57,835 nt of DNA from a virus (taxonomy: Duplodnaviria > Caudoviricetes): IMG/VR virus record IMGVR_UViG_3300037462_000280, positions 1 to 57,835 of that record, one strand, 5' to 3'. Position 1 is the first letter of the stretch. Every line of letters begins with the position of its first letter. Shown in pieces: positions 2,583 through 57,720 of the stretch. The notes beneath the pieces were generated by a model. The model had not been told where the DNA came from, searched no databases, and saw only the letters and a list, made by a program, of their open reading frames with translations. A program made the position numbers and the translations under genes.

Positions 2583-3033
2583 ATCAAGCGAGGACACAAG
2601 GGAGGGCACGGCAAGGCGGGACGGTAGCCACGTCCGATAGGCGGGATAGGCAAGCCAAGGTCAGAATAAATACACGTGCGGGACTCATATGTGCAGCGCG
2701 GGGACAGGTGGCAATAGCCACTAAGCCGCGGTACGTGCAGCATGGGATGGAATACGTGCGCCGCGAGGTTGACTGGCGGACACGGGCAACGCGCCTGACT
2801 TGAAACAGAGTCGGGGTACGTGGGCATAAGACTGTGCAAATGCGCTGACGCGGCGCTAGGCTTGCTAGAATCTCTGGCACCTTAACATATCGTCATGGGT
2901 GGAACCCGCTTGCCTGCTGGGCTTGCGCTGGACACGACGCATACGGGGCTACGTTTGCCTCGCACGATTGAAAAAACGTACAAGCGCGTGCCTAAGCACG
3001 CAAAGTCGAAACACGCCCATACGTGGGCGTGTA
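2583..3033 (+). ncRNA. Putative ~450-nt structured non-coding RNA
   Basis: No credible ORF; many GU-containing hairpins, a candidate pseudoknot; bounded by a promoter and a hammerhead cleavage site. Confidence 0.6.
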
Positions 3034-3072
3034 TGCGTGAGTTGGCTACTCACGTGCTGATGAGACAAGCCA
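3005..3072 (+). ncRNA. Type II hammerhead self-cleaving ribozyme (cleaves after GUA, 3033)
   Basis: GUC-GAAA-CACGCCCA(UACG)UGGGCGUG-UA-UGCGUGAGU(UGGCU)ACUCACGUG-CUGAUGA-GAC, then AGCCA complementary to loop I. Confidence 0.92.
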
Positions 3073-3094
3073 CACCACTAGGGGACAAACAACC

Positions 3095-3361
3095 ATGAGC
3101 ATCTTGACCAAACTGCAAGCTATCCGCAACCAACAAGCCAACGAACGCAACCAACAAACGATTGAACGGGTTTTCCCGCGCTTGCAAGCGCGCTACGCCG
3201 CGGCCATCAATCGGCGTGACGTGTTGGCCGCCGAATTGCAATACAGCCGTGACGCGGCCACCCGCCGCGATTACGCCGCCGCGTGCGCAGAAGTGGCCGC
3301 GTGCGAGGCTATCGCCGCTCGTCTGGACAATCTGGACATGTCGGCAATTGCGGAAGTCTAG
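3095..3361 (+). CDS. Hypothetical helical protein, first early gene
   Basis: RBS AGGGGA, ATG. Confidence 0.7.
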   Translation: MSILTKLQAIRNQQANERNQQTIERVFPRLQARYAAAINRRDVLAAELQYSRDAATRRDYAAACAEVAACEAIAARLDNLDMSAIAEV

Positions 3362-3574
3362 TCCGCTGATTGAAGAAACTTCACACTGGTTAACTTTGCG
3401 GTTTGACCAGTGTGAAGTTAACCACGGTTAAAAGTAGGCACGTGTCGCTTAGTCGCATATGCGGGTAAGCGGGATTTTCAGGCTTAAAGTTTAGGATAAG
3501 CCTAGCTTATGTCAGTTGTCATAAGTTTGGCTTATGGATAAGCTATAAGCAAAACCGATAGAAGGGGTGATGAG

Positions 3575-3850
3575 ATGAGCGATAACAAGCCAGTGGGTTA
3601 TTGGGATTTTCAGGTTGATTTAGGGGATGGGCGCGCTACCACGGTTATCACGGAGGTATCGCCCGATGAGTTCACCTATGGGGATTGGGCGCGTTTGGTG
3701 GCTTGGCGTGCTACCAATCATGGGGAAACTGTGACGTATCACAAGCGCTCATTCCCAGATGGGATTGAGAAGAAGGTAGCGCTTGGGCGCGCCTTGCGCG
3801 TGCGTTGGGCGTATCGGCATGGGGGGTGTGAGCGTCATGAGCGGGTTTGA
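3575..3850 (+). CDS. Hypothetical protein
   Basis: RBS AAGGGGTG. Confidence 0.7.
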   Translation: MSDNKPVGYWDFQVDLGDGRATTVITEVSPDEFTYGDWARLVAWRATNHGETVTYHKRSFPDGIEKKVALGRALRVRWAYRHGGCERHERV

Positions 3851-4085
3851 GGTTGAATTGGGCGGGTTGTTAGGGGCGATAGTGGGTGGCGTGTTGGTGT
3901 CTGCACCGCTACCGCTGATCTTGTGGGCGTTGGGTTGGGCATTCGGCAAGCCTAAGGGTAAGGGGGATGATAGCGCGCCTGTTGTGAGCGAGCGGGTTAT
4001 GAATCGGCGGCTTAAGGCGTTGGAGGCTAAGGCGCGCCAAATTGAGAATGAGCGTGACGCTGAGTATGGGCGTCGGGCGCGGTAG
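3837..4085 (+). CDS. Small membrane protein with coiled tail
   Basis: Hydrophobic N-terminus GGLLGAIVGGVLVSAPLPLILWALGW. Confidence 0.7.
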   Translation: MSGFEVELGGLLGAIVGGVLVSAPLPLILWALGWAFGKPKGKGDDSAPVVSERVMNRRLKALEAKARQIENERDAEYGRRAR

Positions 4086-4178
4086 GTTTGCCGTAGCGTG
4101 TGGCTATCTCATCCCAGATAGCCACACCATAGGGCAATTCTGCGTGTGCAGAATGTTTAGAAGTGAAGTGAGGGTGTC

Positions 4179-4490
4179 ATGGGCGCTATGGTGTCTTTGG
4201 GTTATTGTGAGGGTAAGTCTTTTGAGGAAGTGGAGGCCTTACAAGATAAGTGGTCAGACAAGCGCGCCTACTATTTCGACAAAGCGATGGTGAAGTTAAG
4301 CGGCGCTTGCATTTGGCGCAAGCGGGAGGGCTTATGTGAGCGTTTGGCGCGTTTGGAATTGACGTTAGAATCGTGTTGGGGGGATTTGTATTTCTCTGGC
4401 TATTTTGAGATGGACGACAAGCCCACCTATACCCTTGCCTTGCGTGCGGAGATGTACGAATCGTACATCCAACCCCCTACACCCCTTTAG
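4179..4490 (+). CDS. Hypothetical protein
   Basis: RBS GAGGGTG; follows hairpin element. Confidence 0.7.
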   Translation: MGAMVSLGYCEGKSFEEVEALQDKWSDKRAYYFDKAMVKLSGACIWRKREGLCERLARLELTLESCWGDLYFSGYFEMDDKPTYTLALRAEMYESYIQPPTPL

Positions 4491-4570
4491 AATGACCCTA
4501 GCGCGCCCCTCACCCCTTAGGTGGGGGGCGTCATAGGGCAATTCTGCCTATTTAGAAGTGAAGGTGTGAC

Positions 4571-4972
4571 GTGAGCAAGATGACACAAAAGAACGCAATC
4601 GCCAAATTGAAGGCGATATATGGGGACAAGTTTATGGGCGCCTATGGGGGTGTGCGGGGGGTTTGTGTGGTTATTCGTGACCCTATCCCAGACCGCTACG
4701 TGCCGTGGGCGAAAATTGCTACCCTCACCATCACTGCAAAGTCTTGGGCGCGCCTATTGAAATTGGTTGCCAACGCGCCGGTCTATGGGGAGATGGGGTG
4801 GGTGTGGGCGTCGGAAGATGCACGAGAAGTGTTTCTTAATGAACAATGGGCGCGTCAAGTCTGGTCAGATTTAGCGCAAGACGCACTGTACGCACACGGC
4901 AAGATGACGACAACGCGCCTCCCCGCCCCGTGCGCGCACGCTGAAATTTCAATGTACTCTGACCCCCGCTAA
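4571..4972 (+). CDS. Hypothetical protein
   Basis: RBS GAAGGTG, GTG start. Confidence 0.7.
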   Translation: MSKMTQKNAIAKLKAIYGDKFMGAYGGVRGVCVVIRDPIPDRYVPWAKIATLTITAKSWARLLKLVANAPVYGEMGWVWASEDAREVFLNEQWARQVWSDLAQDALYAHGKMTTTRLPAPCAHAEISMYSDPR

Positions 4973-5070
4973 CCCTCAACTGCGCCGCTCACACCCTCCG
5001 GTGTGGGCGGTTGAGTTGGCGATTAGCCACCCGTGCCGCGCCGGTTCTGCGCGGGCAGAAGGAGTCTGTT

Positions 5071-5547
5071 ATGCCTAAGCGAGTGACCCTCAAGCATGTT
5101 GAGGACGTGTTTCGTAATGGTGTGTGGGGAGGGTTCCTCATGCCCGCGGGCTACACCCCCGAACACTTTGTGTTCTTCCATGTGAACGGCATGTGCGCGC
5201 TAGACATGCGTTTGTTGGGGGGAAGTTCCCGAATCGACTTAGCGCGGGGCACGGCGCGGGAATTGTTGGGGGCGGTGCAGAACCCTGACACGTTCGCGAA
5301 AGCCCAACAGTGGGCGTGGGAGAAAGAAGTTGAGGTTGAGAATGAGGTTATCGGCCAACGAATCGGGTTTGCTGAAACCTTCCCCCACTACACGGGGCAA
5401 TTGGAAGTCATCCAAGATCCGAACGCGGCGGAGGGCAAGACCGCGTACCGCTTGACGTGCGAGCGCCGGTTCATGTCGGGTTTTGCCCTCAAGCTTGAGG
5501 TACAATCGCCTTGCCTGTCCGAGATTATCCCGCATATGCCCCGCTAA
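5071..5547 (+). CDS. Hypothetical protein
   Basis: RBS AAGGAG before ATG 5071. Confidence 0.75.
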   Translation: MPKRVTLKHVEDVFRNGVWGGFLMPAGYTPEHFVFFHVNGMCALDMRLLGGSSRIDLARGTARELLGAVQNPDTFAKAQQWAWEKEVEVENEVIGQRIGFAETFPHYTGQLEVIQDPNAAEGKTAYRLTCERRFMSGFALKLEVQSPCLSEIIPHMPR

Positions 5548-5630
5548 CCCTCACCCTGCTACGCCCTATATCATAGGGCGTAGTGCGGTGGTGATTAGTT
5601 TAGCCACTAGGCAAAACAACGGAGGTGCCT

Positions 5631-6107
5631 ATGACACACAAAGAACAATTTGAAGCCGCCCTCTACGCAGAATTGCAGAGGCAGGATAACGGGGGTGAAT
5701 TAGGGGTATACAATGCGTTTTGGACTAAAGAAGACCAGCGACATTTTGACTGGAGGCAATCCATCCGAGACGATCTTCACGCCCGCCTGAAGAAGAAGAA
5801 AAACGGGTGCATTATTGAAATCCCAACCCATGACGCGGATATGATTCGGCCAAATGGGAGTGTGAGGTTTCAATATCGGGATAGAAAATCAGAGGTGCGA
5901 AAGTACACGCCCGAATCAATTGCACGCTACGGGGTCGAACATGGGGTGAAGCGGGTTAGTGTTCTGCGTTGGGTTCAAGACACCGATGGGATAATGTGCG
6001 TAACGTCGGAAACATGGGAGATTCAGGGGGATAAAGCGGTTAAGTGGGTCTATCGCCCAAACGACACAACCCCTAAGAAAAAGAAAGGGCGTAACATTAA
6101 ACGCTAA
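5631..6107 (+). CDS. Hypothetical protein, basic C-terminus
   Basis: RBS GGAGGT. Confidence 0.75.
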   Translation: MTHKEQFEAALYAELQRQDNGGELGVYNAFWTKEDQRHFDWRQSIRDDLHARLKKKKNGCIIEIPTHDADMIRPNGSVRFQYRDRKSEVRKYTPESIARYGVEHGVKRVSVLRWVQDTDGIMCVTSETWEIQGDKAVKWVYRPNDTTPKKKKGRNIKR

Positions 6108-6194
6108 CCCTCACCCTGTAACCCTCTATAGTCTATATAGAGGGTTGTGCGGTGGTGTTTAGCCACTGATACGCATGTGAGCATGGAGGCTAAA

Positions 6195-8048
6195 ATGCGT
6201 GGTGAAGTTTTAGAGGATTCTCTGAGCGCGGGGATTAAAGCGCTCAAGAAAAACCTCGCCTCGGCGGGTGCGAAAACCGCCAAAGACCAACGGGACATCC
6301 CTGTTACCCTGTCGGTCGGGACACGTTCAGACCTTTGGCTATCGGTGCAAAACCACCGTTTGGCCGTAACCCCTGTTCGAATCGCGTGCAATTGCCACAT
6401 GAGCGGCGCGGTGCAACTGCCCGCTGGGATTGTCACAGGGGTGTTTCTCAAGTCGCTTAAGGGGTTTGGGCGTGTAGAATTGGTGGCCGATATGGACACC
6501 CTCAATGTGATTGGTGTGGGGGGGGCAAAGTTCGCCCTCAACATCCAACGTGCCCCTGAACCCTCATTAGAGGCTGAACAGCCTGTGTGGGAGGCGATTA
6601 TCAGCAAGACCGACGCTAAGGCGCTTGCCGAATTGGTCGGGTTGGCAGATGAGAATGACTATACGCCCGCTATGCGTTGCGCGTATGTGTCGTGCGACGG
6701 TCAAATGCTGAAGGTGCAATTGGCCAACGGTTACACCCTCGGGGAGTACAGGCGCACATTTACGGGGCGTATACCTGAACTGCCTCGCGTTGCCCTGCTA
6801 CCGGTCAGCCTCGGGCAAGCCCTGCGGTCGGTCAAGACCGCAAAGTCGGCTTACGATGTCAATCTCAAGATGTTCAGCAATCGCTTAGAGGTGTGGCAAG
6901 ACAAGCGGCTAGGCGAATCGCCCATCGTGCAGGAAGTCAAATGCCCGTTTGACCCGCTCGACAACTATCGTCAATCGCCTGAAATTCAGGTATGGATGGA
7001 TGTCGATGACCTCATTACGGGGGTTGAACGTGCCGCGTGTGTGGCGCAGGGTGCTATCACCCTCAAGTTTTGCCCAAATGACCGTATGGTCATCGTTTCG
7101 GGGGAAAATGACAACGGTATCATGGAAACAGAGCGGGATGCGACATACGTATCTTGTGATTTGTCGAACCGCAAACCAACCATAACCCTCAACCTCAACA
7201 CCATGTTGGTAGCCCTGCGGGCAGTCAAACAGACCACCCGCACCGTGTTACTGCGGGTCGGGGATGGGTTCTTTCAAGACAAGGTGAGGTTTAGTGGGGA
7301 CGGCGCACACGTCATGATTTTGGCAATGAACCCTCCCGAACGTTCTGCCCGCGCAGAAACGCCCAACCCTGATGCTGAGATGCTAAGTCAATGGTGGTGG
7401 CAAAAGAGTGAGGCGGCGCGTCGTCGGGCACAAGCGCGGTCGGCAAGCAAGCCACCCACGATTGACCTGAATGTCAACATTCACGCCACCGGCCTGCTAC
7501 CACACGGGCAAGCCCTGTACAAGCTCGACTCTTTGGAGAAGTTGCAACAGTACGCTGAAAAGACTTGGGCAACGGCATCTCATTCGGAACGGGCTTGGGC
7601 GCTCAAGAAAATTTGGGAGCGCTTGCCCTCGGCGGCCAAAATTCGCGCCCAACACACCGCCCGCGTGCTCATCTCTCGCGCCACTGCGGATAAGCACCGT
7701 GACCGGATTGCAGAGTTGCACGTGCAAATGGGACATATGCGCCTGATGTGCCGAGAGATGCTTGAGAAACTGTTGCAAGCCAAGACAGACTGGCACCGGC
7801 TTGACGCTCTGTACGGCACTGCTATGGCAGTGGCTCGGATGGTAGAAAATGACGATGAGTTGCGCCCGCAGGGGTTGCAAGCCGTGCTTGCCGCACACGA
7901 CAACGTGAAGGCGGCCAAAAAGCTACTCGACATCGCCCTGAGTAATGCGCGCCGCTGGTTTGGGTACCTGCGCGAGATGCAAAATGAGATTGCAACCCTC
8001 ACGGAAAAGGTGCAAAGTCTTGAGAAAGTTGAGGTTGCGACGGCATAG
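6195..8048 (+). CDS. DNA polymerase III beta-clamp-like protein with ~230-aa helical C-terminal extension
   Basis: DnaN-like pattern (SGAVQLPA, LKVQLANGYTL, DDLITGVERA, ITLNLNTMLVAL, HVMILAM), then coiled coil; RBS GGAGG. Confidence 0.7.
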   Translation: MRGEVLEDSLSAGIKALKKNLASAGAKTAKDQRDIPVTLSVGTRSDLWLSVQNHRLAVTPVRIACNCHMSGAVQLPAGIVTGVFLKSLKGFGRVELVADMDTLNVIGVGGAKFALNIQRAPEPSLEAEQPVWEAIISKTDAKALAELVGLADENDYTPAMRCAYVSCDGQMLKVQLANGYTLGEYRRTFTGRIPELPRVALLPVSLGQALRSVKTAKSAYDVNLKMFSNRLEVWQDKRLGESPIVQEVKCPFDPLDNYRQSPEIQVWMDVDDLITGVERAACVAQGAITLKFCPNDRMVIVSGENDNGIMETERDATYVSCDLSNRKPTITLNLNTMLVALRAVKQTTRTVLLRVGDGFFQDKVRFSGDGAHVMILAMNPPERSARAETPNPDAEMLSQWWWQKSEAARRRAQARSASKPPTIDLNVNIHATGLLPHGQALYKLDSLEKLQQYAEKTWATASHSERAWALKKIWERLPSAAKIRAQHTARVLISRATADKHRDRIAELHVQMGHMRLMCREMLEKLLQAKTDWHRLDALYGTAMAVARMVENDDELRPQGLQAVLAAHDNVKAAKKLLDIALSNARRWFGYLREMQNEIATLTEKVQSLEKVEVATA

Positions 8049-8062
8049 AAGTATGCTATAAT
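8035..8062 (+). promoter_or_regulatory. Sigma70-type promoter
   Basis: TTGCGA-16 nt-TATAAT with TGn extension. Confidence 0.55.
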
Positions 8063-8155
8063 GTAATGAAGGCTTGACACTCTGTCAGCCCATCGCCGCG
8101 AGGGGGTGGGCTGAACGGGCAATCTAGCCCTTTAGCCATATGGAGGCTATCTGAA

Positions 8156-8485
8156 ATGGTCTTTGATGTGACCAATGCAATGCTCAACGCTATCCATTAT
8201 GCAACGCGGTTCCATGCCGAACACGAGCGAGGTTATATCATGCGCCTCGTAGGTTACGATTGGGGCGCTGGAACCGCGTTGGTAAAAGGAACCGGCGCGG
8301 TTGACTGGGTAAAAACCACTGATGGGAAGCTCATTTGGGCTGACCGCCCACAGGTCTGGATAAATGGCACAGACCTGATGCTATTGATAGCGTTGCAACC
8401 TGTCAAATGCGAGTGGCAGGGTGACTACGTTGTTTTCACCCGTAAGGACGGGGGCATCTTCAAAATCAAGAGTCGTAAGTCATAA
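8156..8485 (+). CDS. Hypothetical protein
   Basis: RBS GGAGG. Confidence 0.75.
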   Translation: MVFDVTNAMLNAIHYATRFHAEHERGYIMRLVGYDWGAGTALVKGTGAVDWVKTTDGKLIWADRPQVWINGTDLMLLIALQPVKCEWQGDYVVFTRKDGGIFKIKSRKS

Positions 8486-8575
8486 ACAGCCGCGCCGTTC
8501 GTACAGGGGTGTACGGGCGGTCGGGCTGGGGATGAACATTCGACAACCTCAGTACACGCCTAAAGGAGGCAATCA

Positions 8576-9067
8576 ATGCACAACATTCACACCCGCTTTT
8601 TGAACGAATATCACCCCTCTCAATCGCTCGAGGCCGCTATCCATAGTCAGGCGCTGTCGGTGGGAAACAAAGAAATCCGAAACAAACTTAGGCGAGACGC
8701 GGCGGAATTCAGTGCCGCAATCGAAGGGAAGCTGGCGGAATTCGCACAACGGTACGGCAACGTTGATTTGCGTGGCAGTCTGTATGAGGGAGAAGGGTTG
8801 CCCCCGACCGGCATCACCGCACAACAGATGCTCTGGAATGAGGTTGCGCGTCTTCTGTTCGAGCGTGGCGGGGAGTGGCGTCCCTACACCCAAGTGGACG
8901 CGCAAGGGGTTGTTTCCGCCCCGTTGCCGGAGCGGATGACGGTGTTTGAGTGGTATTTTGCCTACGACGTGGTAAAGGCAGTTGGTGAGGCGCTGTCGGA
9001 GATTTTCCTTTCCATCGGTCGTGACGGCGCGTTTGACGCCGAACACTATCACTGGTTGCGTTCGTAA
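8576..9067 (+). CDS. Hypothetical protein
   Basis: RBS AAAGGAGG. Confidence 0.75.
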   Translation: MHNIHTRFLNEYHPSQSLEAAIHSQALSVGNKEIRNKLRRDAAEFSAAIEGKLAEFAQRYGNVDLRGSLYEGEGLPPTGITAQQMLWNEVARLLFERGGEWRPYTQVDAQGVVSAPLPERMTVFEWYFAYDVVKAVGEALSEIFLSIGRDGAFDAEHYHWLRS

Positions 9068-9158
9068 ATAGTCGCGCCCTGTACGCCCCGCCCGACCGGC
9101 GGGGCACCGCCCCCTGACCAGATTAACCGCCCCGATTGGGGCAGAAGGAAACGACACC

Positions 9159-9836
9159 ATGACCAGCGAGAACCGCCGTGCGAATCTGATGCTAAAAAAC
9201 TATGAAGGCCAGATGCTGGCCGAGTCGATCTTCGAGGCCTGCAATCTCCGGGAGGCGAAGTTCCAAAACGCCAACTTGGAAGGCTCCAATTTTTGGCTGG
9301 CCGAATTGACGCAGGCCGACTTTCGCGGCGCCGACCTGCGCCGCGCCAACTTGGACAGTGTGAAGGCGCGTGGCGCCGATTTTCGCGGCGCCGACCTGCG
9401 AGGCGCGAACTTGTGCGGCGCGAACTTGACGGACGCCGATTTTCGCGGCGCCGACCTGCGAGGCGCCAACCTGCGCGGCGCCGAAATGCAATGCACGGAA
9501 TTTCGTGGCGCCGACCTGCGCGGCGCGCAAGTCGGGATATACGAAGACAGAGTCGGCGGTATCGCCGGTGCGCGTTTGTTCGATGGCGCTTATCTGGATG
9601 GCGCGATTGGGGCTTATCGCTCCCCAGAAAGAGGGCTGGTTCTCAGCCCTTTTATGGGGTGGGAGAGCTACAGGCCGCGAGAAGAGTACGCCTATGCCGT
9701 CCTCACTGAGGACGGGGCGCTGATGCTCCACCACGCATACAATGTGGTGGCAGAGATTCGACACGTTGAAATCGTGTCGGAATTTTATGCCGACTTTGAG
9801 CGATACGTTCAAGGTCGAATCAGCCAAAGCCGATGA
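9159..9836 (+). CDS. Pentapeptide repeat protein
   Basis: Tandem ADFRG/ADLRG/ANLRG repeats. Confidence 0.92.
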   Translation: MTSENRRANLMLKNYEGQMLAESIFEACNLREAKFQNANLEGSNFWLAELTQADFRGADLRRANLDSVKARGADFRGADLRGANLCGANLTDADFRGADLRGANLRGAEMQCTEFRGADLRGAQVGIYEDRVGGIAGARLFDGAYLDGAIGAYRSPERGLVLSPFMGWESYRPREEYAYAVLTEDGALMLHHAYNVVAEIRHVEIVSEFYADFERYVQGRISQSR

Positions 9837-9965
9837 AACGCCCCGCCCCCACCCTCGCCGGTGGGGGCACAGCCACCCTCTAACCCTCAACTGCGCCGCT
9901 CACACCCCCCCCGGTGTGGGCGGTCGGGTTGGCGATTAGACCAACTATGCCCAGAGGAGGCACAA

Positions 9966-10337
9966 GTGAAGACGAAAGCAGAGTACTTCTACACCTACTC
10001 GTACAGCAAGAAGCGCAGTAACGCAATTTACGAGTTGGTGCGTGAGCACAAGTTCAGTGGCAAAGGCCGGATGCAATTCGGGAAGTATCGCCTTGCAATC
10101 GGGCGGAAGTGGGAAGACCGTAACACGGTCTTCTTTTACGAGAAGAACGGTCGTGATTGGGTTGTTGCCGCATTCATGGAAAATGACGGGACGTTATACG
10201 GCAACGATTCGACGATGAGCATCGCGCACGGTCGCACCGAGTGGGAGAAGCCAGAGCGCCTCAAGCCGCTGGTGACGGCATTCAACGCTGAGATTGAGAC
10301 CATCCTGAAGGAGGTGCAAGATGGCAAGCAAGCGTAA
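9966..10337 (+). CDS. Hypothetical protein
   Basis: RBS GAGGAGG, GTG 9966. Confidence 0.7.
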   Translation: MKTKAEYFYTYSYSKKRSNAIYELVREHKFSGKGRMQFGKYRLAIGRKWEDRNTVFFYEKNGRDWVVAAFMENDGTLYGNDSTMSIAHGRTEWEKPERLKPLVTAFNAEIETILKEVQDGKQA

Positions 10338-10518
10338 GGGGCACAACACCGACACGGGTCGTCGGGAACTGGAGGCGATGTTTGCTCAGGCAATCGAGAA
10401 GCACCGCCGTGAGGAAAAACTGAAGCGTGACCTTCTGCATAAGCAGAAGCGTCGCAACCGCCGTGTGAGCCAACACAACCGCTGGGAGATGGATTGGGGG
10501 TTGGACGATGTTTTTTGA
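10321..10518 (+). CDS. Small basic hypothetical protein
   Basis: RBS AAGGAGGT. Confidence 0.65.
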   Translation: MASKRKGHNTDTGRRELEAMFAQAIEKHRREEKLKRDLLHKQKRRNRRVSQHNRWEMDWGLDDVF

Positions 10519-10663
10519 GATTGTCGGGTCTGCCCTGCTGGGCGGGTTGGCCTGCGGCTTGGCGGCGGGCACCTTCACTTACTGGGCACTGTCAGCCTTG
10601 ATGATGCCCGCAATTGCTAAATTCAAACCGGATGACATCGAAGGGAGTGAGCAAAATGAGTGA
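10508..10663 (+). CDS. Small membrane protein (51 aa)
   Basis: MFFEIVGSALLGGLACGLAAGTFTYWAL...; fills the operon gap. Confidence 0.55.
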   Translation: MFFEIVGSALLGGLACGLAAGTFTYWALSALMMPAIAKFKPDDIEGSEQNE

Positions 10664-11309
10664 ACCCACCGCCAACGAGCTTATCGCAATCATCACCCAC
10701 TATCGTGAGGTTTCCTCGCGGTCGTGGGCAGATGTGACACGCGCCGAAAAAGCCCTGTTTGAAGCAGGGCTTGCCAACCCTGACGCGCCGGTCTCTTTCG
10801 CTGAATACGCCGTGTGCCGTGGGGTGGCGTTGGCCGCCGATGAGCAAGTTGCTAAGGCTGAGGCGAAGCTGGCCGCCCTACTCCCCGACGCGACGCAAGC
10901 AATCATGGAAGTGGACAAGGCGCAAGCTGAGATTGACGCCCTCGAGGCGCAATTGGTGGCAAGCCGCACCCCTGAGCAAATCGAGTTGCAAGCGCGTATC
11001 GAGAGCGCGCAGGCAACCCAAGCAATCCTTGTCAAGATTGCCAAAGAGTGTGTTTTGGCCGCTGGCAAGTCGCCCTTAGGCGGGTTCAGCGTGTCCAACA
11101 ACACGACCGTGACCGCTACCGACTTGGGCAAGTTGCCCGAGGGAATGGTGACGACCACCACGACCACGACGATTGACGCAAAGAAGGCGATTGCGCTACT
11201 GAAAGACGCGCCTGAAGTTGCCAAAGAGGCGGGATTAGAGGTGGTGATTGAACCGAAGTCGGTCTCATTCACCCCCTCAAACCTGCCCTCGCGTAAGGGT
11301 AAGAAGTAA
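10656..11309 (+). CDS. Coiled-coil protein, siphovirus Gp157/Gam-like
   Basis: Long helix, then TDLGKLPEGMV...IDAKKAIALLKD..EV..AGLEV. Confidence 0.5.
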   Translation: MSEPTANELIAIITHYREVSSRSWADVTRAEKALFEAGLANPDAPVSFAEYAVCRGVALAADEQVAKAEAKLAALLPDATQAIMEVDKAQAEIDALEAQLVASRTPEQIELQARIESAQATQAILVKIAKECVLAAGKSPLGGFSVSNNTTVTATDLGKLPEGMVTTTTTTTIDAKKAIALLKDAPEVAKEAGLEVVIEPKSVSFTPSNLPSRKGKK

Positions 11310-11388
11310 GACGATAGCCGCGCCCGTTTGACTGCGGTCAAGCGGGTCGGGCTGGTGTCTTACCAGCTATGCCTAGAGGAGGCACAAC

Positions 11389-12048
11389 ATGATTATCGGG
11401 ATTGAAGGTTTGGAGAAGGCGGGCGTGACCACGTTTGCCAAGCAACTGGTTCAGACGTTGGAGGTCAATCGCATTGCGCTGGCGCGCTACTTTGACCCGC
11501 TGGCAAGCTCGTGGGTTGAAAACAGCCCTATCCGTGAGGGCTGGCGCAAGACCATCGACACCCACGACATTAACCTTTTGGCGGGGGCGCACCGCAATAC
11601 CCTCGCTGGGGCGCGGCGGTTCCTCGATTTTAACCCCAACGGCAATCACCGCATTGCGGTCATCGACCGCACTATGTACAGTTGGCTGGCGCAGTGGGGC
11701 GGTGGTGGTTCGTATAGCCCGAAAAACCTGCAATTTGACCTCATTGTGTACCTTGACACGCATGATGACATTCGGGCAGAACGTGCCGCTGCGGTCGGAG
11801 AGAAGCTGAACACCGACCGCGATACCGAGACCAGTGAGCGCTACAGTGAGTTGTTGCCCGATTGGTTTGACGGTACGTGCCACATCATTACCGGTGGCAA
11901 TCCGGTTGAAAAGCTTGTTGCCCAGTTGTGGGAACGCAAGCTACGCAAGGCGATGCAAATCCGCGAGGTGGCGCGTGCGTACAGCTTCTCAGAGAAGCCG
12001 ACCCGTATGCCACACAAGCTTAGCCAAACCAGTGAAGGGGGTGTGTAA
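11389..12048 (+). CDS. Thymidylate/dNMP kinase-like protein, degenerate P-loop
   Basis: MIIGIEGLEKAGVTT, VIDRTMYS, DLIVYLD. Confidence 0.75.
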   Translation: MIIGIEGLEKAGVTTFAKQLVQTLEVNRIALARYFDPLASSWVENSPIREGWRKTIDTHDINLLAGAHRNTLAGARRFLDFNPNGNHRIAVIDRTMYSWLAQWGGGGSYSPKNLQFDLIVYLDTHDDIRAERAAAVGEKLNTDRDTETSERYSELLPDWFDGTCHIITGGNPVEKLVAQLWERKLRKAMQIREVARAYSFSEKPTRMPHKLSQTSEGGV

Positions 12049-15365: not shown

Positions 15366-16289
15366 ATGTCTCAACAAGAAAACATCACGGAAACACAAAA
15401 AGCGATTGACCGTCTTTGGCGGCAGATAGAGGCACGACTTCAGCGATATTGGCCGGTCTACAGTCTGTCAGGCTTTCCCGATGATGAAGCGAAAACGCTC
15501 GAGGTCTTTAGGGTTGGGAAGCTCATACATCCAGCCGATGTGCATTTCAACTATGAACGACTAAGGGACATTGATGAGTACCGCAAGAGCTTGCAAATCT
15601 ACATGAGGGAATTGGATATGGGAGCGCTACTCGGTATGCGAGGTACTGACGCTAACCCAAGAGCCATGTGTATCTGGGAGTTAGAACGGCTGCACAACGC
15701 GGGGCACTCTCTCGTAGGGTATACGACGTTCACTGACCGTCCTTACCAAATCATGACGGGTGGCAATTTTGATGGGGCTGACTTGCGTGGCGTTAAGCGT
15801 GCACATTTCAAGTCATGCAGCCTTAGAGGCGCTAAGTTCAATCATTCAGTAGAGGACAATGGTTATCCGTACCCGCCCCACTTCACGTTTGAGGATTGTG
15901 ACTTGACCAACGCAAGCTTTGCAGGAGCCTTTTTGCATGTTAAAGCCTACCGATGCGACTTGACATCGGTAGACTTTAGCAACGCGACACTTCACCGCTC
16001 GTTAATCAAGGGCTGTGTGATGACAAACGTGGTACTGGATTGGACTTCCCCAACCGAAATCGGGCTATCCAACCAAGTAATCATCGGGGGCGATGTTAAT
16101 AAACCCAACCTCATTGTCTACGCCGTCTATCACCGCACTGCCTCAGGCGCACCTCGCATCATGTTCAAGCGGGGCAAGTACTGGGGTGAGGCTGAAGGAC
16201 TATTGGCAGGTCATCGTGCTGTTCGGGGGGAACTATCAGAGTTTGTGACCAAGGCAACAAAATCGCTCATCGCACGGAATGGAGGCTAA
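15366..16289 (+). CDS. Protein with central degenerate pentapeptide repeats
   Basis: GNFDGADLRG, CDLTNASFAGA, CDLTSVDFSNATL. Confidence 0.7.
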   Translation: MSQQENITETQKAIDRLWRQIEARLQRYWPVYSLSGFPDDEAKTLEVFRVGKLIHPADVHFNYERLRDIDEYRKSLQIYMRELDMGALLGMRGTDANPRAMCIWELERLHNAGHSLVGYTTFTDRPYQIMTGGNFDGADLRGVKRAHFKSCSLRGAKFNHSVEDNGYPYPPHFTFEDCDLTNASFAGAFLHVKAYRCDLTSVDFSNATLHRSLIKGCVMTNVVLDWTSPTEIGLSNQVIIGGDVNKPNLIVYAVYHRTASGAPRIMFKRGKYWGEAEGLLAGHRAVRGELSEFVTKATKSLIARNGG

Positions 16290-18143: not shown

Positions 18144-18219
18144 GTCACAGATTGCCTCCGCTCCGTGATTGCCTCCTCAGGCGCAAAACCCCACGCCATC
18201 CCCCGTGGGGTTTTGTTTT
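18144..18219 (+). ncRNA. sRNA-A: two GAUUGCCUCC anti-SD motifs plus intrinsic terminator
   Basis: Promoter, repeated anti-SD motif, terminator CCCCACG/CGTGGGG-TTTTGTTTT. Confidence 0.75.
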
Positions 18220-18235
18220 GCCTACCCATCGCCGT

Positions 18236-18299
18236 AAAAAACAACAAAAACCCGCCACATTTGAGCGTGCCGTAAGGCATAGGCTTGGCGGGTATAGTC
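18236..18299 (-). ncRNA. sRNA-C candidate or large terminator hairpin
   Basis: TGtTATACT at 18305-18313; stem ACCCGCCA/TGGCGGGT plus U tract. Confidence 0.4.
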
Positions 18300-33428: not shown

Positions 33429-33435
33429 ACGCACA

Positions 33436-33466
33436 GAACGCCCCATTACGGGGCGTTCTCGTTTTA
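33436..33466. terminator. Terminator between the converging early and late arms
   Basis: AGAACGCCCC-ATTAC-GGGGCGTTCT then CGTTTT. Confidence 0.75.
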
Positions 33467-56020: not shown

Positions 56021-56046
56021 AAAAAGCCCCTCAGTTGAGGGGCTTT
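56021..56046. terminator. Bidirectional terminator
   Basis: AAAAAGCCCCTCA-GT-TGAGGGGCTTT. Confidence 0.8.
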
Positions 56047-56804: not shown

Positions 56805-57125
56805 CTACTCAATCTCCTTCGGCGGCCAGTCCGCATCAATCGTACCCATCTGTGAAAGGTCAATGCGCGCAAGGCGCACTTGTTCAGCAATGAATGTCCC
56901 GAGGCTGTGGTGCTTCTTACTCGCGTGCTCACCCGCCTTCCCACGCCGCTCATGCTTCCCACGCGGCTTCACCGTTTCCATGTGCTCATGAAGCTCTGGC
57001 AGGGCGGTCGCAAGCAACCGACGCCCCGCCTGCGAAAGTGTCTCATCCTCACCCCGTTGCGCGTCAATCACGTCAATCGCCGCCTCGGGCATGTAAATGA
57101 CCAGTTGCTTGATGTTCGTCGGCAT
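56805..57125 (-). CDS. Small putative DNA-binding protein
   Basis: RHH-like KQLVIYMPE...TLSQAGRRLL. Confidence 0.55.
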   Translation of the reverse strand: MPTNIKQLVIYMPEAAIDVIDAQRGEDETLSQAGRRLLATALPELHEHMETVKPRGKHERRGKAGEHASKKHHSLGTFIAEQVRLARIDLSQMGTIDADWPPKEIE

Positions 57126-57128
57126 GAC

Positions 57129-57365
57129 CTATTCCCCGCACACATACGCGCCGTCGCGCTCATCACACTCGACAAGCGTCATATCACCGTTGGCAAACTC
57201 AACACGCCACACATCCGCAGTCAAGAAGCTCCCCTCTAAGACCAGCGTCGCCTTCTGCGCGCCCGTATAACCCAGCACCACTTCTGCATGGGCAGACCAC
57301 TGCGCTACCGTACTCACCAGCGAGACCGCAAACAAGACCAAGCCCAACAGCACCAAACGCCCCAT
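57129..57365 (-). CDS. Small secreted/membrane protein
   Basis: MGRLVLLGLVLFAVSLV. Confidence 0.6.
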   Translation of the reverse strand: MGRLVLLGLVLFAVSLVSTVAQWSAHAEVVLGYTGAQKATLVLEGSFLTADVWRVEFANGDMTLVECDERDGAYVCGE

Positions 57366-57369
57366 GTTC

Positions 57370-57720
57370 TCACTTCCCTTCGCTGAGCTTGCGCTCGATA
57401 CACTTGATAACCACATCCACACACGCTTTCGGGTCAGTCTCGAGTTGTTGCGTTGAGAACCGAAACACCGCCCAACCTCGTGCAGCCGCCTCATTCATCT
57501 TCTCGCGGTCTGCATCTCGATTGTGCCGCCCACCACCTAAGACCCACTGCCCACCATCCACCTCAACAGCTATCTTGAGATGCTCATCCGCCCAGTCAAA
57601 CCGCCACTTTCGCGGCTTGGCAAACGCATACTCCCCAAGCCATAACACCGCAGCAGGGGAGGCTTCCCCAAACGCTAACCACGCAAATTGCCACAGGCTA
57701 GACTTATCAGAACGGGACAT
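57370..57720 (-). CDS. Vsr/DUF559-like PD-(D/E)xK endonuclease
   Basis: EY.F...RKWRFD.A...KIAVEVDGG.W...GRH....D.EK.NEA...GW.V.RF. Confidence 0.88.
   Translation of the reverse strand: MSRSDKSSLWQFAWLAFGEASPAAVLWLGEYAFAKPRKWRFDWADEHLKIAVEVDGGQWVLGGGRHNRDADREKMNEAAARGWAVFRFSTQQLETDPKACVDVVIKCIERKLSEGK

Follow-up and report, generated by a model that had tools for sequence, protein, structure and literature searches.

Irregular hairpins between the early genes of a siphovirus-like phage: possible RNase III-type processing sites in an operon with a hammerhead ribozyme candidate

Introduction

The classic case of RNase III signals in a phage message is the early transcript of bacteriophage T7, which is ~7000 nt long and carries five of them (PMC3867540). 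As described in that source, the idealised RNase III substrate spans 22 bp, cellular substrates are often shorter than 20 bp, and a loop or mismatch at the target site confines the cut to a single strand, which leaves a stabilising 3′ hairpin. Here we describe a family of irregular hairpins between the early genes of the phage in IMG/VR virus record IMGVR_UViG_3300037462_000280 (Duplodnaviria; Caudoviricetes), which was analysed over its whole length of 57,835 nt (the window) and in which eight copies of one hairpin design may play a comparable role.

Two further systems bear on the locus. Hammerhead ribozymes flanking prophage and phage genes have been proposed to cleave long transcripts, giving mRNAs that cover one gene or one operon (Perreault et al. 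2011, PMC3088659), and the same source describes type II hammerheads with a pseudoknot between loop I and the tail and with a stem II of down to two pairs. The promoter-early stem-loop cassettes (PeSLs) of T4-type phages combine a strong sigma-70-like promoter with a transcription-terminating stem-loop (Arbiol et al. 2010, PMC2839356).

The virus record that forms the window is complete and has a direct terminal repeat of 127 nt; the phage genome measures ~57.7 kb with a siphovirus-like gene set. The + strand carries early and replication genes at ~2.5-33.8 kb, and the - strand carries terminase, portal, major capsid and tape-measure-like genes at 33.5-57 kb. Neither a single-subunit RNA polymerase nor an integrase was seen when 59 open reading frames (ORFs) were compared with PHROGs, and no tRNA genes were found in the window.

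A family of eight hairpins in the early spacers

Mapping the ORFs of positions 4086-11391 revealed ten spacers of ~80-130 nt each, eight of which carry a hairpin of one design, consisting of a basal stem of 3-6 bp, a small symmetric mismatch, an upper stem of 11-14 bp and a variable loop. The five type 1 copies (A to E) have a 5-bp basal stem, a 2x2 mismatch, a G.U-closed upper stem of 11-12 bp and a loop of 4-6 nt without conserved sequence, and copy H is a variant of this type. The two type 2 copies (F and G) have a base of 4 bp, a single 1x1 C.C mismatch and an upper stem of 13-14 bp that starts with two wobble pairs. The copies are listed below in genome order, with their scores under the covariance model R1 described in the next section.

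4089-4136, + strand: copy H, type 1 variant; upper stem 12 bp (4098-4109 / 4116-4127), GC/CA 2x2 mismatch, base interrupted (2 bp, G.G mismatch, 4 bp); begins 3 nt after the stop at 4085
4496-4538, + strand: copy A, type 1; basal stem 5 bp, GC/CA mismatch, upper stem 12 bp closed by G.U, loop 5 nt; 24.3 bits, E 4e-4
4977-5018, + strand: copy B, type 1; basal stem 5 bp, GC/UG mismatch, upper stem 12 bp, loop 4 nt; 63.6 bits, training sequence
5552-5590, + strand: copy F, type 2; basal stem 4 bp, 1x1 C.C mismatch, upper stem 13 bp begun by tandem wobbles; no + strand match to model R1
6112-6154, + strand: copy G, type 2; flanks as in F, upper stem different (14 bp)
8487-8528, + strand: copy D, type 1; basal stem 5 bp, GC/CG mismatch, upper stem 12 bp, loop 4 nt; 60.2 bits, training sequence
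9888-9931, + strand: copy C, type 1; almost a duplicate of B (91% over 62 nt), loop longer; 58.2 bits, training sequence
11315-11354, + strand: copy E, type 1; flanks as in D, upper stem different (11 bp); 31.0 bits, E 6e-6

Conservation centres on the helix base, and the apical loops are free to vary. In six copies (type 1 and H) the 5′ strand of the mismatch is invariably GC, which stands opposite CG, CA or UG and is kept unpaired. By their common flanks the copies form the pairs H/A, B/C, F/G and D/E. The hairpin starts 1-5 nt past the upstream stop codon in 7/8 copies, and its end lies 32-52 nt from the next start codon.

A preliminary description of this DNA had recognised a common architecture despite divergent sequence, and the eight copies of one design bear this out; its examples at 11316, 8488 and 4977 were correctly placed, and the 3x3 loop that it drew (GCG opposite UCG and similar triplets) is the same feature as the 2x2 mismatch, with the closing G.U counted as unpaired. 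Its count of about ten elements was too high: strong hairpins lie in all ten spacers, but only eight belong to the family, those in spacers 8049-8155 and 9068-9158 being unrelated. Its placement of one before nearly every early gene was too generous: among the 13 genes served, a family copy precedes eight and another hairpin precedes two, while three (starts 10321, 10508 and 10656) have no spacer. Genes abut or overlap at 10337-11309 and past 11389. The remaining hairpins and a short box linked to four copies are as follows.

8085-8114, + strand: unrelated 10-bp hairpin in spacer 8049-8155, ~20 nt 3′ of a promoter-like site at 8035-8062
9085-9105, + strand: unrelated GC-rich hairpin in spacer 9068-9158
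9845-9868, + strand: additional GC-rich hairpin of 9 bp, 3′ of the stop at 9836 and 5′ of copy C
4970-4978, + strand: 9-nt box TAACCCTCA directly 5′ of B, found also 5′ of F (5545), G (6105) and C (9881)

Spacer 9068-9158, whose 5′ end resembles the 5′ half of D/E, may be a decayed copy. The box TAACCCTCA has five exact copies in the genome, all on the + strand within 5 kb (4970, 5545, 6105, 7183 and 9881), of which four lie at hairpins and that at 7183 lies within the gene for a 617-aa protein; its TAA is the stop codon of the upstream gene in three of the four hairpin-linked copies. The box seems to resemble the core promoter of T3 RNA polymerase; a role as a phage RNA polymerase promoter was rejected because the scan of 59 ORFs showed no gene for a single-subunit polymerase. 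Two other motifs were set aside: TTAGCCA has four of its nine genome copies in spacers, yet 7 of 100 shuffles reach nine, and a repeated heptamer in the leader showed no excess over chance. Pairwise comparison of the proteins flanking the copies found them unrelated (best E 0.057), so gene duplication was rejected as the source of the repeats, which are not its by-product.

Statistical support, strand and covariation

As + strand RNA, all ten spacers fold better than their shuffles (z -2.7 to -4.3; 0-2 of 200 shuffles as good). A covariance model, which the preliminary description had proposed to build from the copies, was made from B, C and D (model R1) and recovered E and A on the + strand in a search of the genome. 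Among its 36 matches at E <=10 none was convincing beyond the family, and the next + strand match, at 17.2 bits, lacked the upper stem. A sequence-blind descriptor (upper stem of at least 10 pairs, symmetric mismatch of 1-3 nt, base of at least 4 pairs) gave seven matches on the + strand, exactly A, B, F, G, D, C and E, three on the - strand, and a single match in total over ten shuffled genomes (0-1 per genome). Moreover, the + strand has 20 hairpins with 11 or more pairs, and 12 of them fall inside 12.6% of the genome (binomial tail 7e-7). Rfam 15 returned no match at its gathering scores, and no spacer hairpin was matched at E <=1 or <=0.5, ribozyme families included.

Stem pairs are canonical in 134 of 134 cases, and 18 of them are G.U or U.G wobbles that turn into C.A mismatches on the - strand and break the stems there. 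In addition, the reverse-strand scores of model R1 for B, D and C (30.7, 25.8 and 19.7 bits) are lower than the forward ones (63.6, 60.2 and 58.2). Both observations fit a family of + strand RNAs, as the preliminary description had proposed.

The pairs D/E and F/G have common flanks and differing upper stems, the structure being held while the sequence varies. When 3′ partners were shuffled among copies, 60-76% of cells still paired, and 0 of 1000 shuffles reached the observed 100%, a value that is partly given by the definition of the stems. The pair table and the shuffle control were made from coordinates, since the MAFFT alignment was not in structural register; the covariation is limited to copies in one genome because no usable relatives were found.

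An alternative fold downstream

The preliminary description had called the elements two-state, and the alternative downstream pairings that it quoted do exist. When a cut was simulated at the 3′ side of the mismatch, 8/8 products folded a hairpin 0-5 nt from the new 5′ end, and 6/8 used the 3′ basal strand to do so. Keeping the 5′ strand unpaired places the alternative fold 0.3-7.6 kcal/mol above the basal-stem fold. In D and G the minimum-energy structure already includes the alternative fold, and H and B are without a clear mutually exclusive fold. The predicted downstream hairpins are listed below.

4132-4158, + strand: downstream hairpin after H, core not overlapping the basal strand
4536-4549, + strand: alternative hairpin with the 3′ basal strand of A; 23% of shuffles as good
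5017-5029, + strand: weak alternative hairpin after B; 36% of shuffles as good
5587-5608, + strand: alternative hairpin with the 3′ basal strand of F, from folding
6150-6168, + strand: alternative hairpin with the 3′ basal strand of G; 0.3 kcal/mol from the basal stem, nearly equal
8525-8553, + strand: alternative hairpin with the 3′ basal strand of D, in the minimum-energy fold; 2% of shuffles as good
9927-9946, + strand: alternative hairpin with the 3′ basal strand of C, from folding
11350-11368, + strand: alternative hairpin with the 3′ basal strand of E, from folding

The layout of the simulated products in 8/8 copies would support the earlier proposal that a hairpin protects the 5′ end after a cut, with statistics that are weak and are weighed below. 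Beyond these hairpins, small hairpins of 4-5 bp stand just before the start codon at four places on the + strand (8130-8155, 8558-8575, 9947-9965 and 11370-11388), with the Shine-Dalgarno sequence in their loop and 3′ arm, a layout of several spacers that looks like a shared ribosome-binding-site design.

A hammerhead candidate before the first early gene

A relaxed Rfam search pointed to one further element upstream of the spacers.

3004-3075, + strand: candidate type II hammerhead ribozyme scoring 31.0 bits, where the gathering score is 37; predicted cut after A3033

The match has an E-value of 0.024 over the whole window and 7e-5 over the local stretch, and it ends 20 nt ahead of the first early ORF (ATG at 3095). 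Its core letters are intact, stems III and I have 9 bp each and stem II has 3 bp, and the 5-nt loop of stem I is fully complementary to the tail just 3′ of stem II, as in a pseudoknot. In a control search, 6 of 14 ordinary genomes also gave a match at E <=1, none over the cut-off; because of these matches, the element at 3004-3075 is termed a strong candidate rather than a proven ribozyme. If cut, it would give a 3′ product beginning with the stem I hairpin and a 5′ product ending with stem III, the same layout as that proposed for the hairpin family. Its position in the equivalent slot before gene 1 supports a processing role for the hairpins. If active, the candidate would free a leader RNA of ~450 nt (~2583-3033, fold z -2.2).

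Promoters and terminators

Promoters and terminators were sought by consensus scans. Only two good promoter-like sites were found on the + strand in the early region, and the total of 7 promoter-like sites is no excess over the shuffle mean of 6.4.

2547-2576, + strand: best sigma-70-like promoter match (11 of 12), likely the start of the early rightward transcript
8035-8062, + strand: promoter-like site with an extended -10 (10 of 12 plus TG)

None of the eight copies carries a promoter-like site in these scans, and none was flagged for a T tail or terminator-like site on the + strand; one weak 5-pair terminator match on the - strand overlaps the 5′ edge of E. Strong T-tailed hairpins occur elsewhere in the genome, at 18183-18216, 33435-33459 and 56023-56046.

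Search for relatives

Comparison of the region with phage records by megablast and blastn returned only pentapeptide-repeat matches, the repeat DNA alone matching cultured phages by blastn. No related locus was found in viral contigs with the 617-aa early protein or with TerL, and a search of 5.8 billion proteins with the 617-aa protein returned only itself. TerL gave one match in genome contigs, at 24% identity. The major capsid protein matched two fragments of 2.3-2.5 kb in metagenome contigs, with 95% and 98% identity, which do not reach the early region; these fragments, from another metagenome assembly, are the only close kin found, and a close relative thus exists in fragmented form.

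The preliminary description had also envisaged a search of viral databases with the covariance model. Model R1 found no match in 52 viral loci of TerL relatives (28-42% identity; 608,940 bases) and none in five whole records. Six DNA patterns searched in viral contigs gave 15, 3 and 11 chance matches without an upper stem or a match to the model, and 0 and 0. The one hairpin cluster seen in a relative consisted of ordinary T-tailed terminators.

Comparison with described systems

The closest likeness is to the T7 signals. In folds of five T7 early intergenic stretches, which we take to be the named R sites (the T7 records list no such features), upper stems of 9-13 bp with wobbles stand over an irregular base. 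In both systems, irregular hairpins occupy spacers of an early operon that the host transcribes, one before each of several early genes; in both, about one helical turn of upper stem stands over an internal loop or mismatch and then a lower stem, which amounts here to ~19 bp-equivalents. G.U pairs, variable apical loops and an expected 3′ hairpin on the upstream product are further points in common, as is the location between cistrons of one long transcript (8/8 copies lie in spacers) without promoter or terminator features in the consensus scans. The hairpins described here differ from the T7 signals in their small symmetric 1x1 or 2x2 mismatch and short lower stem, in abutting the stop codon, and in a 3′ basal strand that can re-pair downstream. 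Unlike T7, this phage is siphovirus-like in its gene set, and no phage RNA polymerase was seen among its 59 ORFs.

The ompA message and processed papA messages carry protective 5′-terminal stem-loops. The proposed downstream products resemble them in having a hairpin within a few nt of the 5′ end, but here that 5′ end is a hypothetical one, and the short hairpins have weak statistics. With the phage hammerheads the locus shares proposed transcript cutting and, in the first slot of the same operon, a type II candidate. The eight hairpins, by contrast, have no ribozyme core and match no Rfam ribozyme at relaxed thresholds, and would need a protein nuclease. Like the PeSLs as described by Arbiol et al. 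(PMC2839356), they recur as small regulatory cassettes that separate early genes which are non-essential and whose function is unknown, and pairs of copies could mediate shuffling; unlike PeSLs, they have neither a promoter-like site per copy nor a T tail. Integron attC sites are marked by inverse core boxes conserved at the hairpin base, by extrahelical bases and by a partner integrase, the last of which was not seen among the 59 ORFs scanned. Intrinsic terminators have a GC-rich hairpin directly followed by a U tract, an arrangement found in 0/8 copies.

Reading of the hairpins

We favour the reading in which the eight hairpins serve, like the signals of the T7 early mRNA, as cut-and-protect sites for a host enzyme of the RNase III type, and place its probability at about one half. 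Host RNA polymerase would make one long early transcript, with likely promoters at 2547 and 8035. A double-strand-specific host endonuclease, most likely RNase III, would then bind the irregular helix of ~19 bp and place a nick at the conserved mismatch, ~12 bp below the apical loop. The stable upper hairpin would stay as the 3′ end of the upstream message, and the downstream message would start 0-5 nt before the small hairpin of the freed 3′ basal strand, with the ribosome-binding site after it. The analysis establishes the family itself, its strand, placement and geometry, and the absence of terminator and promoter features; the identity of the nuclease, the position of the cut and the protective roles of both hairpins are inferred.

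Several observations weigh against this reading. The preliminary description had offered a T7-like RNase III interpretation, which fits in geometry, intergenic placement and + strand specificity but not in sequence: against 12.4 kb of the T7 early region, model R1 scored at best 9.4 bits (E 1.2), no similarity, so that the relation is one of analogy and not of membership by descent. The comparison with RNase III sites is one of geometry and not of the E. coli proximal- and distal-box rules, and a basal stem of 3-6 bp is short next to the T7 lower stems. The covariation is drawn from paralogous copies of one genome rather than from orthologues, and the complete pairing is partly by construction, the stems having been defined by pairing. 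Whole-spacer energy favours the + strand in 8/10 spacers and the - strand in the other two (9068-9161 and 9837-9968), which tempers the strand assignment. The downstream hairpins are individually weak, only 2/8 beating 95% of shuffles, and their combined P of 0.002 assumes an independence that fails because the copies share sequence. Of the two-state claim, then, the quoted pairings stand and general statistical support does not, and of the proposed protective hairpin the layout stands in all eight copies on the same weak statistics.

The stable upper stems right behind stop codons would also suit decay barriers or segment stabilisers, with a single-strand endonuclease of the RNase E, G or Y type cutting the less structured, A/U-richer stretch just 3′ of the hairpin, in the manner of other intercistronic processing, and no role for RNase III. 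The A/U-richest parts of the spacers do lie 3′ of the hairpins, where they form the loops of the alternative hairpins, and an RNase III site would be expected to have longer basal stems. A simple barrier, however, needs neither a mismatch at a fixed depth (11-14 bp) nor a conserved basal stem, and the descriptor matches are all of one design, so that we regard this explanation as possible, if unlikely. The conserved helix base and variable apical loops could instead be read by a phage or host RNA-binding protein that shifts the balance between basal stem and downstream hairpin and thereby controls translation of the next gene. Such a switch would find two folds only 0.3-3.1 kcal/mol apart in 5/8 copies and ribosome-binding sites within small hairpins just downstream. 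The alternative hairpins are statistically weak, though, and H and B offer no clear mutually exclusive fold; moreover, no RNA-binding or nuclease domain was recognisable in any of the 17 early ORFs (PHROGs, Pfam), which is weak evidence because most of them are orphans. On balance a protein-controlled switch, which the preliminary description had named as its alternative, appears distinctly unlikely.

Two further explanations do without RNA processing. The hairpins may mark DNA-level cassette boundaries, repeats for modular gene shuffling akin to PeSLs or integron-like sites, with RNA structure incidental. Copies paired by common flanks (B and C being 91% identical over 62 nt), an upstream stop codon inside the repeat in three copies, and flanking genes that are unrelated orphans would all suit this. 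It is made highly improbable by the G.U pairs and strand asymmetry, which indicate RNA, by stems that vary between identical flanks, a needless feature for identical recombination repeats, and by the lack of a promoter with each copy and of an integrase among the scanned ORFs. That stable, GC-rich hairpins right behind stop codons are terminators or attenuators without a U tract, each gene having its own unrecognised promoter, is scarcely credible, given that strong operon-end hairpins of the same genome do have a T tail and none of the eight copies does, and that only two good promoter-like sites were found in a count no higher than in shuffles.

A variant of the cut-and-protect reading adds translation. 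Because the hairpin starts 1-5 nt past the stop codon, a ribosome terminating on the upstream gene must open the basal stem and the lowest pairs of the upper stem, which would release the 3′ basal strand for pairing into the downstream hairpin. The element would then be a translation-coupled toggle, in which the nuclease site exists only while the upstream cistron is untranslated, and the hammerhead would be a constitutive version of the same job at the first slot. We consider this very unlikely.

Other features of the genome

Several observations stand apart from the hairpin family. After the first early ORF, a 17-bp hairpin lies at 3377-3419 (+ strand), and ahead of the ORF at 3575 one hexamer or its complement occurs five times within 3490-3550 (+ strand; 3496, 3505, 3530, 3538 and 3545), a cluster that looks like a protein-binding array. 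The 617-aa early protein (6195-8048, + strand) matches a DNA polymerase processivity-factor family weakly over residues 73-350 (PHROG 947, E 4.5e-6). Two pentapeptide-repeat proteins are encoded on the + strand, at 9159-9836, within the hairpin-punctuated early region, and at 15366-16289.

Strand composition is extreme at ~57000-57708 and 1-2200, where the + strand holds 12-19% G and 38-43% C (GC skew -0.52 over 1-2000), and is near balance in the rest of the genome; the leftward genes of that stretch (SSB, a GNAT-DUF6610 protein and others) therefore give C-poor, G-rich mRNA. A match to the Rfam abiF RNA motif at 18250-18292 (- strand) remains below threshold (33.8 bits against a gathering score of 37). 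It sits in a non-coding hub of ~1 kb (18.1-19.2 kb), where promoter-like sites diverge and both strands have T-tailed hairpins.

Implications

Signals of this kind are well known, and the points of interest are the hammerhead in the same operon and the design that abuts the stop codon and re-pairs downstream. Were the toggle true, the processing, stability and translation of an early gene would report on the translation of its neighbour. If the favoured cut-and-protect reading is true, a phage without close relatives and with siphovirus-like genes uses a T7-like logic of early-mRNA punctuation, combining a hairpin design of its own with a self-cleaving ribozyme in one operon. The eight natural variants would form a compact set for asking what bacterial RNase III reads in its substrate, and the locus would be one more argument that phages have repeatedly invented, as a general strategy, the cutting of long early transcripts into protected messages of one gene each.

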